From IMG/VR virus record IMGVR_UViG_3300037501_000255: a stretch of 64,000 nt of DNA; one strand, given 5' to 3'. Below are positions 37,572 through 39,531 of this stretch, piece after piece. Positions within the stretch are counted from its first letter, which is position 1; every line of letters begins with the position of its first letter. Below the pieces are notes generated by a model. It was given only the letters and a program-made list of their open reading frames with translations, ran no database searches and had not been told where the DNA came from. This DNA is from a virus. Taxonomy: Duplodnaviria > Caudoviricetes. Made by a program: the position numbers and the translations under genes.

Positions 37572-37701
37572 TGGTGGGGACGGAGGGACTCGAACCCTCA
37601 TGCTGTTTAGGCGCAGGAATCTTGGCGATTGGTGTCGGAGTCGAACCAACATATACCTTACCAATCAAATCCTGTGTGTCTACCAGTTCCACCACGTCCC
37701 C
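37572..37701 (-). tRNA. tRNA-Leu(TAG) interrupted between nt 34 and 35 by a 44-nt mini-tRNA
   Basis: Leu scaffold GGGGACG-TGGTGGAACTGGTAGACAC; CAGGA-TTT[insert]AGAT-TCCTG; variable arm; ACCA; 86 nt without the insert. Confidence 0.9.
37623..37666 (-). other. 44-nt mini-tRNA insert 1
   Basis: GATTGGT-AAGGTATAT-GTTGG-TTCGACT-CCGAC-ACCAATC-GCCA. Confidence 0.9.
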
Positions 37702-37734
37702 ATACTAATTATTTACGATACATGCGGAGGGCTT

Positions 37735-38166
37735 ATGGACCTATACTTTGAAGATGTTGACTGCTATATTAGCGTAGAGCCGGAAGATTTCAGCGAAACT
37801 TTTGTTGTTGATGCCGAGATTTCCGATGCAGCCGCTGACCTACTCATTACTGCAAATGAACTTGATGAGGTGGGATTTTCCTCCTTAGCCAATACTATGG
37901 ACTCCATCCTGATGAAGTTAGCGGCAAAGTATCATGGCCGTACAGTTACACTTAACAAGCCATTTAGGACGCCGAAGGGCCCTAAGAAATTCAGCGTATA
38001 CACTAAAAATGAGAAGGGTAACGTAGTCAAGGTTAATTTCGGAGACCCAAACATGGAGATTAAACGCGATATACCGGCTCGCCGTAAATCATTTAGAGCA
38101 CGTCACAAGTGCGATAATCCCGGCCCCAAGTGGAAGGCGCGCTACTGGTCATGCAGAATGTGGTGA
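37735..38166 (+). CDS. conserved phage-type protein with shared ANxLD motif and basic C-terminal domain
   Basis: LLITANELDEVGFSSLANTMDSIL; KVNFGDPNMEIKRD.PARRKSFRARHKCD..ARYWSC. Confidence 0.8.
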   Translation: MDLYFEDVDCYISVEPEDFSETFVVDAEISDAAADLLITANELDEVGFSSLANTMDSILMKLAAKYHGRTVTLNKPFRTPKGPKKFSVYTKNEKGNVVKVNFGDPNMEIKRDIPARRKSFRARHKCDNPGPKWKARYWSCRMW

Positions 38167-38361
38167 GCTTGTCACTTAAATTCATCGCTCAAATCGTATA
38201 CCCCCGAAAAACGAATCAGCTCACGTTTCGCGGAAATCCCCGCGCGACTCATTCGTAGTTAAAACTTTCTGAGCAGACTCTGGACGAAGCCTCGTTTCAA
38301 TATGGCGGCCTGCACTGGAGTAATCATCTCCTTCTCTGTAAATGTCACGGCCATTTTATAC

Positions 38362-39072
38362 TTACTCCTTTACGAGTATAACCTGATGCTGCTCCAGCCA
38401 TGCATCTGGTAGATGCCGAGGTCGCGCATTGTCCAAGAAGTGTTTGCGCCAAAAAGCAGTTACCCTCTCCTCCCCCAGATCAGCAACAACCTTGTCTGCC
38501 CAACAGTCCATATCCTCGCGAATTCTCGTCTGCTCTTCAATAAAACCAGCAAGAGCTGCTGTGTTATTGTGCAGATGCGAGGGTAGCTTCGCCCACATTT
38601 TTGGGAGGGCATTTGGATGAAGCATCTCAGCTCTTTCATACAAAGCCTTGGCGATGCGAAGCGACTCGACTACCCGGTTCCATTTCTGCTTATCAATCAG
38701 CGCATTTTTGAGAATGGTCTTTTCTGCCTCTGCAGTGCGCTCATAAGTATCATGGCAGGATACGCAAAGTGCCAGAACGTCGTATCCATTGTGGCGCTTG
38801 TACTTTTCCCTGAATGACCTGCGAAAACAGTACGGCACTACGTGATGGCGCTCTAGATTTTTCTCTGTGCCACACACCACGCATTTACTTGCGCGCGGCA
38901 GTAGCTCCACATCGTAACTGACGCCTCGGCCAGCATGTTCGAAATTGAGCTTGAACTCCCTATCTGAAATACGAGATGCTAAATTGCGGCCTACATACCA
39001 CTCCATGCGCTTGCGATCTACATAGGCGAGTGTCTCGCCTGTATGTGAAATCATTTTGCAGTTGTCGTACAT
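38362..39072 (-). CDS. HNH-like protein resembling the C-terminal domain of EXD2
   Basis: MYDNC.M..GE.L..VDRKR.EWY..RNLA; CVVCG..L.RHHVVPYCFR..HN.YDVLALCVSCH. Confidence 0.75.
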   Translation of the reverse strand: MYDNCKMISHTGETLAYVDRKRMEWYVGRNLASRISDREFKLNFEHAGRGVSYDVELLPRASKCVVCGTEKNLERHHVVPYCFRRSFREKYKRHNGYDVLALCVSCHDTYERTAEAEKTILKNALIDKQKWNRVVESLRIAKALYERAEMLHPNALPKMWAKLPSHLHNNTAALAGFIEEQTRIREDMDCWADKVVADLGEERVTAFWRKHFLDNARPRHLPDAWLEQHQVILVKE

Positions 39073-39091
39073 GGCATCGTCTTTTTGAAAA

Positions 39092-39167
39092 TGGAGCCGG
39101 CAACCAGAATTGAACTGGTGACCTCCTGCTTACAAGGCAGATGCTCTACCTGCTGAGCTATACCGGC
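39092..39167 (-). tRNA. tRNA-Thr(TGT)
   Basis: CTGC-CTTGTAA-GCAG, CCA end. Confidence 0.95.
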
Positions 39168-39400
39168 GTAAACCTTACCTCTCTATACTACAGCGCCTAA
39201 GGTCGGAGGGCTGCTCCTAAATCCTAGAGAGTGAGATCCCAAATCATTATTTTTGCCGTACGTCAGATTGGGAATTGAGTACGAGCAGAGTAGGGCCCGC
39301 ATTCATTACATAAGTAATAGAGCGGGTTCACCATCTCATGTTTCCATGTGGCAACTAATCTCTAATCGTAGCCGAAGCCTTAGATTGCATCGAGATTATG

Positions 39401-39531
39401 TGGTGGCCTGAGAGGGACTCGAACCCTCATGCCTGTGAAGGCGGTTGATTTTTGGTGGAGGATATTGGAGTTGCACCAATCACACCTACGTCCCCCGAGT
39501 CAACTGTGTCTACCAGTTCCACCATCAGGCC
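39401..39531 (-). tRNA. tRNA-Leu(CAA) interrupted between nt 34 and 35 by a 44-nt mini-tRNA
   Basis: GGCCTGA-TGGTGGAACTGGTAGACAC; GTTGA-CTC[insert]AAAA-TCAAC; variable arm; ACCA; 87 nt without the insert. Confidence 0.92.
39453..39496 (-). other. 44-nt mini-tRNA insert 2
   Basis: GGGGGAC-GTAGGTGTG-ATTGG-TGCAACT-CCAAT-ATCCTCC-ACCA. Confidence 0.9.

Follow-up and report, generated by a model that had tools for sequence, protein, structure and literature searches.

In cyanobacteria and plastids the group I intron of tRNA-Leu(UAA) sits between nucleotides 34 and 35 and, to our knowledge, textbooks admit only self-splicing introns in bacterial and phage tRNA genes. The closest described precedent for the elements treated here is a set of 'enigmatic' tRNA introns in Lak megaphages, one of which 'may encode a tRNA' (Devoto et al. 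2019, Nat Microbiol, PMC6784885, their fig. 4 and table S6). In this study, we analyzed a stretch of 64,000 nucleotides (the window) from the Caudoviricetes virus record IMGVR_UViG_3300037501_000255 of IMG/VR, which derives from a freshwater metagenome; with a genome of about 368 kb, the virus is a jumbo phage. Two tRNA-Leu genes of the window are each interrupted between nucleotides 34 and 35 by a tRNA-shaped insert of 44 nucleotides that ends in CCA. Our findings, drawn from sequence comparison, support their reading as intervening sequences of neither the group I nor the bulge-helix-bulge (BHB) kind. An earlier note on this DNA, made without database searches, knew of no intron class of this sort; the Lak introns, which precede it, correct this, although the flush, CCA-ended form does differ from them. 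As a published precedent they are slight and offer no mechanism, and the inserts are a minimal variant of them, flush and CCA-ended. A full-text literature search returned no paper on such a splicing mechanism, papers outside the searched literature remaining possible. The genes and their inserts are laid out as follows.

37572-37701, minus strand: tRNA-Leu(UAG), interrupted, 130 nucleotides; 5' exon 37701-37667, insert 37666-37623, 3' exon 37622-37572
37623-37666, minus strand: insert 1, 44 nucleotides; stem 37666-37660 with 37633-37627, linker 37659-37651 (AAGGUAUAU), T-like arm 37650-37634 with loop UUCGACU, tail GCCA at 37626-37623
39401-39531, minus strand: tRNA-Leu(CAA), interrupted, 131 nucleotides; 5' exon 39497-39531, 3' exon 39401-39452
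39453-39496, minus strand: insert 2, 44 nucleotides; stem 39496-39490 with 39463-39457, linker 39489-39481 (GUAGGUGUG), arm 39480-39464 with loop UGCAACU, tail ACCA at 39456-39453

Both genes encode class II tRNAs whose anticodon stem encloses 51 nucleotides, not 7, and in both the 3' exon (37572-37622 in the first) carries an encoded CCA. The Rfam tRNA model spans them at 45.3 bits (37575-37701) and 42.0 bits (39404-39531), leaving a gap of 48 nucleotides where the model has four loop positions. With the inserts taken out, class II tRNAs of 86 and 87 nucleotides result, with the loops UU-UAG-AU and CU-CAA-AA; the predicted spliced junctions are UUU/AGAU, in which CAGGAUUU meets AGAUUCCUG, and CUC/AAAA, in which GUUGACUC meets AAAAUCAAC. 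The tRNA-shaped inserts at 34/35 and the normal tRNAs left by their removal had both been described in the earlier note and are borne out here, the genes lying on the minus strand and their orthologues in a relative being intact (below). The two inserts share the layout 7-9-5-7-5-7-4 and run from the first base of the 7-bp stem to an N-CCA tail. Insert 1 pairs as a 7-bp GAUUGGU/ACCAAUC stem, a 9-nucleotide linker and a 5-bp GUUGG/CCGAC stem, a fold identical to that of minimum free energy, and was also found by our flush-stem scanner with its ARAGORN check. In insert 2 the outer stem consists of six pairs and a C.A mismatch, the loop UGCAACU is no canonical T-loop and the AU-rich inner arm is absent from the minimum free energy fold. 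Identity between the two is 21/44 ungapped, as counted by eye, and 64% with gaps. Fold energies against dinucleotide shuffles are not significant by themselves (z of -1.6 and -0.4), and the structure of the inserts rests on comparative evidence. ARAGORN overlooks both genes without its intron option; the 'Pro' call with shifted boundaries that it makes with that option was rejected, given that the long variable arm and the orthologues disagree with it. The inserts are no accident of one assembly, a concern raised earlier: an independent Logan contig of 95,278 nucleotides (run X1) shows no difference over 37400-39700, and a contig of 151 nucleotides that comes from another freshwater study (X2) matches 37582-37732, and with it insert 1, again without difference.

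Empty sites are seen in L132, a syntenic 115-kb contig in ENA found through a 52% homologue of a 236-amino-acid window protein; as in the window, Leu(CAA) is followed there by Thr, an HNH-like gene and Leu(UAG). Its Leu(UAG) gene (10813-10895) is uninterrupted, with loop TT-TAG-AC, and so are Leu(CAA) of L132 (9673-9758) and of a further relative, L170 (3856-3943, minus strand), both with loop CT-CAA-AA. Since a shift of one base at either end would yield another loop, this comparison fixes the insert boundaries. Conversely, L132 carries inserts in Thr(UGU), Val(UAC) and Ala(UGC) (45, 37 and 48 nucleotides), the window counterparts of which are intact. A 50-nucleotide insert occurs in the Ala gene of L135 and one of 47 nucleotides in tRNA-Val(UAC) of L170, and L172 has an intact Val gene with exons nearly identical to those of L170. 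The lineage thus holds seven distinct inserts, all seven between nucleotides 34 and 35, and no target-site duplication was seen at them. Similar inserts cross from one tRNA species to another, the flanking exons of such gene pairs being unrelated: the window Leu(CAA) insert is 77% identical to that of L170 tRNA-Val(UAC), and their outer stems show compensatory changes; the window Leu(UAG) insert has a T arm near-identical to that of the L132 Thr insert, all seven outer-stem pairs differing and still being paired. Given unrelated exons around related inserts, the spread is not driven by exon homology. The Ala inserts of L132 and L135 are homologous (62% identity, with a common GGUCAUA hairpin), and between their exons paired bases have changed together in the acceptor, anticodon and T stems, with G3.U70 and A73 kept. 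Similarly, the window Leu(CAA) exons show compensatory changes against L132 (acceptor and anticodon stems) and against L170. Compensated exons with an insert present point to genes under selection as tRNAs, and hence to an insert that is probably removed from the RNA; independent insertions may be an alternative to inserts held for long in diverging exons.

Putative homing-endonuclease genes seem to adjoin the interrupted tRNA genes frequently. For instance, a LAGLIDADG_3 match (E 1.4e-6) at 14881-16671 of L132 lies 28 nucleotides behind its Ala gene, a weak HNH match (L170, 4981-5700, minus strand) stands beside L170 Val, and the HNH-like homologue at 10001-10822 of L132 lies beside its Thr gene, between Thr and Leu(UAG). 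We considered 'collaborative homing' as an idea only, and L132 has the HNH homologue, yet its Leu genes are intact.

The seven lineage inserts were aligned with linkers removed, following our own parse, which favors the structure, the outer strands being fixed by the insert ends. In the stack of 12 bp formed by outer stem and hairpin, 96.4% of the cells are paired and 10 of the 12 pairs have changed on both sides; none of 500 shuffles reached the observed covariation, and registers slid along the alignment pair at 37-57%. The earlier note had named a variable position, or a lack of acceptor-stem covariation, as what would speak against it; both the position, constant throughout the lineage, and the pairing come out in its favor. 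The 7+5 bp stack is present in both window inserts and in five of the seven overall, no unpaired base separating the 3' strands. A 7-nucleotide U-N-C-R-A loop is likewise found in five of seven, and the tail reads CCA in five and CAA in two. The layout described earlier (7-nucleotide acceptor strands, 5-bp T stem, T-loop) therefore stands, whereas the invariance of CCA does not extend across the family, two relatives ending in CAA. Minimal members combine the 7+5 bp stack with a UNCRANY loop, a GG in the 9-nucleotide linker and an N-CCA tail; the linker GG plausibly mimics G18G19 of the D-loop, which form the tRNA elbow with the T-loop. A possible origin of the inserts in real tRNAs that lost their D and anticodon arms is hinted at by a full-size phage tRNA-Met-like gene (L175, 12295-12364), whose T arm, AUUGG-UGCAACU-CCAAU, equals that of the window Leu(CAA) insert. 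The alanyl-tRNA synthetase identity of insert 2 (G3.U70, A73) is real but was rejected as a general function, being unconserved in the family. Overall, exact empty sites, covariation, sporadic presence in orthologues and maintained exons support the intron reading, and with it the earlier proposal of a tRNA-shaped intron that does not splice itself.

The design is not confined to this lineage. In IMG/VR, at least 119 loci matched the pattern 'T-loop, 12 nt, CCA, 15-34 nt, second T-loop', and to these we applied a scanner that asked for a 7-bp stem flush with the insert ends, for an anticodon stem around it and, once the insert was removed, for a tRNA that ARAGORN recognizes with its anticodon in place. 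It returned 18 distinct inserts before two doubtful matches, an alternative reading in L252 and the one in L273, were dropped; at least 17 are tabulated, so that the search for CCA-ended minihelix inserts in other phages suggested earlier has yielded at least 17 further cases, at 34/35 or 35/36. With the seven of the lineage these make 24 cases, all IMG/VR counts being among the matches listed. The IMG/VR inserts measure 44 to 83 nucleotides and interrupt tRNAs for Ile, Lys, Gln, Asn, Glu and Leu(UAA), eight at 34/35 and nine at 35/36; members of 44-45 nucleotides, where sizes cluster, have the 7-9-5-7-5-7-4 layout and the linker GG, like both window inserts. Immediately ahead of the insert, the exon has U in 23/24 cases and C in one, the window Leu(CAA); the inserts themselves begin (base +1) with G in 19 cases and with C in five, and all 24 terminate in A (CCA or CAA). 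Both window inserts fall within the resulting definition of a flush mini-tRNA intron, which lies at 34/35 or 35/36 after a pyrimidine, starts at +1 of its 7-bp stem, ends with N-CCA and on removal leaves a tRNA that ARAGORN recognizes. Other searches were less productive. A pattern of the exact geometry found no relative in IMG/VR, a scan of a single metagenome gave only att-like tRNA duplications and hairpin-type inserts (no CCA-ended relative), and the subfamily pattern TTGGTGCAAYTCCAAWATC had one match, a full-size tRNA-Met-like gene. The pattern TGGTAGACRC..GGTTCGARTCC, again in IMG/VR, mostly matched an unrelated tRNA-like family, 'AGTCAGG...'.

That phage RNA family (L001-L118, e.g. L002, L039 and L108) has near-invariant ends, AGUCAGG-UGGCGGAAUUGGUAGACGC ... 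CAGGUUCGAAUCCUGU-CCUGACU-AC, a Leu-like acceptor, D arm and T arm without CCA, and a variable center of 85-115 nucleotides; the PF09414 ligase is found in none of its eight large records. Plain hairpins of 32-35 nucleotides, without CCA or T-loop, lie in the anticodon loops of phage or metagenome tRNA-Leu genes in L045 (6632-6719), L158 (3756-3872) and L162 (341-462, minus strand), and perhaps represent another sort of short insert. In the metagenome contigs L142, L145, L147, L157 and L164, a truncated 5' fragment of tRNA-Leu precedes a whole tRNA-Leu(CAA), the pattern expected at att sites and the chief source of false matches for exon-anchored patterns.

How such inserts might leave the RNA is suggested by their ends, which coincide with those of a tRNA top half, base +1 on one side and CCA on the other; RNase P, RNase Z and the CCA-adding enzyme all read this part of a tRNA. 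A minihelix of acceptor and T arm with CCA is reportedly a minimal bacterial RNase P substrate, a result ascribed to McClain, Guerrier-Takada and Altman in 1987. The window inserts present the features of such a substrate, namely the 12-bp stack, the T-loop motif (equivalents of U54, C56 and A58) and an RCCA tail, together with G+1 and, in both genes, a pyrimidine at -1. In the mechanism that we consider, the array would be transcribed and the pre-tRNA would fold with the mini-tRNA projecting out of the anticodon loop; RNase P would cleave 5' of insert base +1, leaving a 3'-OH on a 5' exon that ends at nucleotide 34; an endonuclease that cuts CCA-containing precursors right after CCA would then release a 3' exon with a 5'-phosphate; and a PF09414-family ATP-dependent ligase would join the 3'-OH/5'-phosphate nick in the anticodon loop. 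The predicted products are an 86- or 87-nucleotide tRNA-Leu and a free, CCA-ended mini-tRNA of 44 nucleotides. For the second cut, RNase Z/BN-type and RNase E-type enzymes are candidates, both with precedents of cleavage straight after CCA, by Thermotoga maritima tRNase Z (PMC3161902) and by Escherichia coli RNase E on tRNA-Pro (PMC8860583). In addition, CCA is encoded by each of the window's 23 tRNA genes, so that the host must already mature CCA-containing precursors. Excision by RNase P and a post-CCA cut, followed by ligation, is only offered as a plausible mechanism, now better constrained by ligase type, CCA context and substrate features. The roles proposed earlier, hiding the anticodon or timing Leu decoding, stay conjectural. 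That the inserts are mobile, protein-less 'mini-tRNA introns' of large-phage tRNA genes, excised by end-processing enzymes and then ligated, is a proposition that we hold to be about evenly poised.

The distribution of ligases is consistent with this proposition. Every intron-bearing IMG/VR record of 100 kb or more, ten in number, has a PF09414 match, as does one fragment of 4.8 kb, and the six intron-bearing records without a match are all fragments of at most 25 kb. As controls, 28 large tRNA-bearing records without such an intron in the ~10-kb loci inspected gave 11 matches (Fisher one-sided p = 0.0007, or p = 0.012 with same-scan controls only, in statistics that ignore kinship). RtcB is found in 0/11 intron-bearing records and a T4 Rnl1-type ligase in 1/11. 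Since ends of the 3'-OH and 5'-phosphate type need no healing before an ATP-dependent ligase acts, the proposed cuts fit phages that have PF09414 and lack RtcB. The window itself holds the following genes of this kind.

51150-51640, minus strand: ATP-dependent RNA ligase gene, PF09414-like, with a K-I-D-G motif and at least two frameshifts; adjoins RlaP
52019-53167, minus strand: RlaP, RNA-ligase-associated Pol-beta nucleotidyltransferase (PF10127, E 3.1e-20)
56890-57381: Macro-domain gene
57378-57827, minus strand: 2H/LigT-like phosphoesterase, of the RNA end-healing group
58048-58623, minus strand: metallophosphoesterase, of the RNA end-healing group
58601-59158, minus strand: HAD_SAK_2, of the RNA end-healing group

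Several observations weigh against excision by RNase P and ligation by a phage enzyme. The only ligase gene of the window is frameshifted: read in three frames, with one frameshift at a G5 run, it gives a fragment match in Pfam at E 9.5e-5, under the cut-off. Its counterpart in L132 (1300-1500) is an N-terminal stub that has lost the catalytic core and is fused in position to the next gene, in a genome still holding three inserts. With the gene broken in one and coreless in the other, the lineage would need another ligase, and the window gene looks like a decaying one in a lineage that keeps its mini-tRNA introns. The ligase association takes no account of kinship, and its controls were screened for introns in ~10-kb loci only. 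Neither RNase Z nor the RNase P protein nor polynucleotide kinase was found by Pfam among the scanned open reading frames of the window. The site rule is equally awkward: U at -1 is much commoner before inserts (23/24) than at the ordinary tRNA genes of the window phage (9/23), and among the 24 cases no insert follows the universal U33. Such a rule goes beyond the preference of RNase P, and the site would thus be set by something else. Furthermore, two family members end in CAA, the hairpins of three are no T-loops, the exact cut after CCA is documented for few pairs of enzyme and substrate, and the window sequence was found in DNA sequencing runs only, in no RNA run. Lak introns, finally, carry some 30 extra nucleotides 5' of their tRNA-like part, and RNase P cannot set their 5' splice site.

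Part of this evidence would suit another kind of true intron, removed by a dedicated, unrecognized endonuclease of phage or host, which would read the anticodon stem, the 3 x 8-nucleotide internal loop and the 7-bp helix and leave 2',3'-cyclic phosphate and 5'-OH ends to be healed and sealed by phage enzymes or host RtcB. A site rule tighter than the preference of RNase P (after U in the anticodon, never after U33) is what such an enzyme could impose, the Lak introns, unable to use RNase P at the 5' site, point the same way, and the window has a cluster in heal-and-seal style (2H/LigT, HAD_SAK_2, metallophosphoesterase, Macro, RlaP and the ligase remnant). Yet a dedicated enzyme leaves unexplained why all 24 boundaries match +1 and N-CCA and why T-loop and linker GG are there, the neighborhood of the genes yielded no candidate nuclease, and RtcB is missing from all 11 intron-bearing phage records; we consider it unlikely. 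Among the scanned window open reading frames, none had a Pfam match to an EndA/Sen-type splicing endonuclease. A catalytic RNA, be it a degenerate group I intron or a small self-cleaving ribozyme, has in its favor the position, 34/35 being the site of the tRNA-Leu(UAA) group I intron. Lineage inserts of 37-50 nucleotides are far under the size of a group I core and end in A, not G; no intron or ribozyme family of Rfam was detected, at gathering scores over the whole window or at E up to 1 over 20000-50000, and the core motifs of hammerhead, twister and hairpin ribozymes were not seen by eye. This explanation appears very improbable.

It may also be asked whether anything is spliced at all. In a third account, a mobile mini-tRNA gene has settled in anticodon loops, the mini-tRNA, released by RNase P and 3' processing, being the product, the tRNA halves waste and the Leu genes dead or mere carriers. 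Free-standing mini-tRNAs of similar layout do exist, in the array of the window (40722-40773) and behind IMG/VR tRNAs, the local ligase gene is broken, and a restored 7-nucleotide loop follows from any clean insertion, hence says nothing about splicing. Dead genes, however, should not remain perfect cloverleaves with compensatory changes and identity elements once their inserts have diverged, as in Ala of L132 and L135 and in Leu(CAA), nor should the interrupted pair be the only Leu tRNAs of a near-complete set. The restriction of inserts to two anticodon junctions, where sealing gives a normal tRNA, and the ligase association also tell against it, and we rate it as rather improbable, a little below the dedicated endonuclease. 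As for an assembly chimera or sequencing artefact, the Logan contig identical over 2.3 kb, the exact insert 1 in a second study and the recurrence of the design in unrelated assemblies make it next to impossible.

The interrupted genes belong to a minus-strand tRNA array, of which ARAGORN finds 21 genes and the Rfam tRNA model adds two long ones; in this set of 23, otherwise near-complete, no other Leu gene is present. By Pfam, the window encodes Ro60/TROVE, RlaP, ClpB, OmpA-domain proteins, UvdE, two trypsin-like proteases, HNH nucleases, SspB, a run of Macro, 2H, metallophosphoesterase, HAD_SAK and MnmA, as well as PTH2, a TilS-like protein, IF3, YqeY and DHH/DHHA1. The setting looks bacterial, with a class II tRNA-Tyr and genes for OmpA and SspB. 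Megablast of 36000-46000 against GenBank phages matched nothing. The features next to the Leu genes are these.

38362-39072, minus strand: gene for a 236-amino-acid protein, possibly an HNH-type homing endonuclease, between both Leu genes
39092-39167, minus strand: tRNA-Thr(UGU), intact; loop CTTGTAA against CTT-(45 nt)-GTAA in L132, an empty site
40722-40773, minus strand: free-standing mini-tRNA-like element of 52 nucleotides, flanked by a Y-like RNA on either side; perfect T arm (GGUGG-UUCGAAU-CCACC) and tail ACCA

The 236-amino-acid protein has no Pfam match, and its far homologues are labeled 'HNH domain-containing' by their sources. The element at 40722-40773 indicates that the mini-tRNA module occurs outside tRNA genes too. 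In IMG/VR, 28 of the 104 listed pattern matches have a short acceptor/T-arm unit right behind an ordinary tRNA, nine of them CCA-ended, and L188 has a free unit (7320-7363, minus strand of the locus) with the same 44-nucleotide 7-9-5-7-5-7-4 layout as the introns. Several further RNAs of the window are tRNA-like. A 98-nucleotide tRNA(CAU) at 24222-24319 (minus strand), whose D region is aberrant and whose variable region is long, adjoins a PP-loop (TilS-like) gene (23538-24263, minus strand). The tRNA-like gene at 35319-35404 (minus strand; Rfam 29.3 bits), with about 12 extra anticodon-loop nucleotides and no encoded CCA, is of another kind than the mini-tRNAs. Five others, all on the minus strand (41081-41205, 43205-43306, 43308-43436, 43747-43869 and 43951-44083), have a longer helix in place of the anticodon arm and Y-RNA-like motifs (UUGACC.., GGUCCGA, UUAUC), and the phage has a Ro60/TROVE gene at 5732-7339 (minus strand). 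Such Y-like tRNA chimeras also occur in the relatives L132, L168, L170-L172 and L174; they are long tRNAs to Rfam, and ARAGORN -i misreads them as intron-bearing tRNAs. A YrlA/Y RNA identity for the Leu genes themselves is out, as these have a normal anticodon stem and no Y-type helix for Ro60 binding.

Taken one step further, the mini-tRNA introns would represent a third tRNA splicing route, in which a mobile tRNA top half borrows RNase P, a post-CCA nuclease and a phage ligase, the mini-tRNA being itself a product and the element spreading after U. We advance this tentatively, as a possibility that falls short of an even chance. If true, bacteria and phages would have a route besides group I self-splicing and the BHB endonuclease, with a protein-dependent intron whose sole information is its likeness to a tRNA top half, a new splicing logic. 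Each interrupted gene would give two RNAs, the freed CCA-ended mini-tRNA serving, for example, as a decoy for tRNA-targeting defense nucleases or as a chargeable minihelix, and the element would spread among anticodon loops, always after U (rarely C) at position 34 or 35. The widespread PF09414/RlaP modules of large phages would gain a routine substrate besides damage repair, and a 44-nucleotide cassette that universal enzymes remove with precision from whatever RNA loop holds it would be a possible tool. Because ARAGORN misses such genes or calls them 'Pro', phage tRNA repertoires, and arguments from codon usage built on them, are incomplete.

How, then, do the inserts relate to known systems? 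Lak introns likewise split the anticodon loop of phage tRNAs by a short non-group-I insert, in which a tRNA-like unit (7-bp stem and T arm) borders the 3' exon with a short 3' tail, and vary in presence between related genomes. Unlike the window inserts, they measure 79-114 nucleotides, place about 30 nucleotides, a conserved 5' hairpin and an A-rich linker, ahead of the tRNA-like part, have CA, CTA or ACA tails and are positioned by tRNAscan near 37/38; the window inserts are minimal at 44 nucleotides, flush on both sides, CCA-ended and at 34/35, without the 5' module. The group I intron of tRNA-Leu(UAA) shares the tRNA species, the 34/35 site and a sporadic, mobile distribution, yet is a self-splicing ribozyme of more than 200 nucleotides that has a P1-P9 core, uses a guanosine cofactor and ends in G; the inserts share none of these features. 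Archaeal and eukaryal BHB introns (EndA/Sen, then RtcB or Trl1) are also short, non-catalytic, located in the anticodon loop and dependent on protein removal and a ligase; the inserts differ in lacking a BHB, both splice sites lying in one internal loop (3 versus 8 nucleotides), in their bacterial context and in the absence of RtcB from the intron-bearing phages. By inspection, the 5' site is at the foot of the 7-bp helix and the 3' site four nucleotides past its other strand. RNase P and RNase Z cut embedded modules such as minihelices, the MALAT1 mascRNA and the mitochondrial punctuation tRNAs at the same +1 and 3' ends; there the flanks are left apart, whereas here their rejoining would be the purpose. 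In T4 anticodon-loop repair (PrrC, Pnkp, Rnl1), a phage ligase similarly seals a break beside the wobble base, but this mends damage, the break falls 5' of nucleotide 34, end healing is required and no RNA is removed. Closest in gene content are the RNA repair modules of jumbo phages (Iyer et al. 2021, PMC7824862), like which the window has RlaP, 2H, Macro and ligase genes in a cluster.

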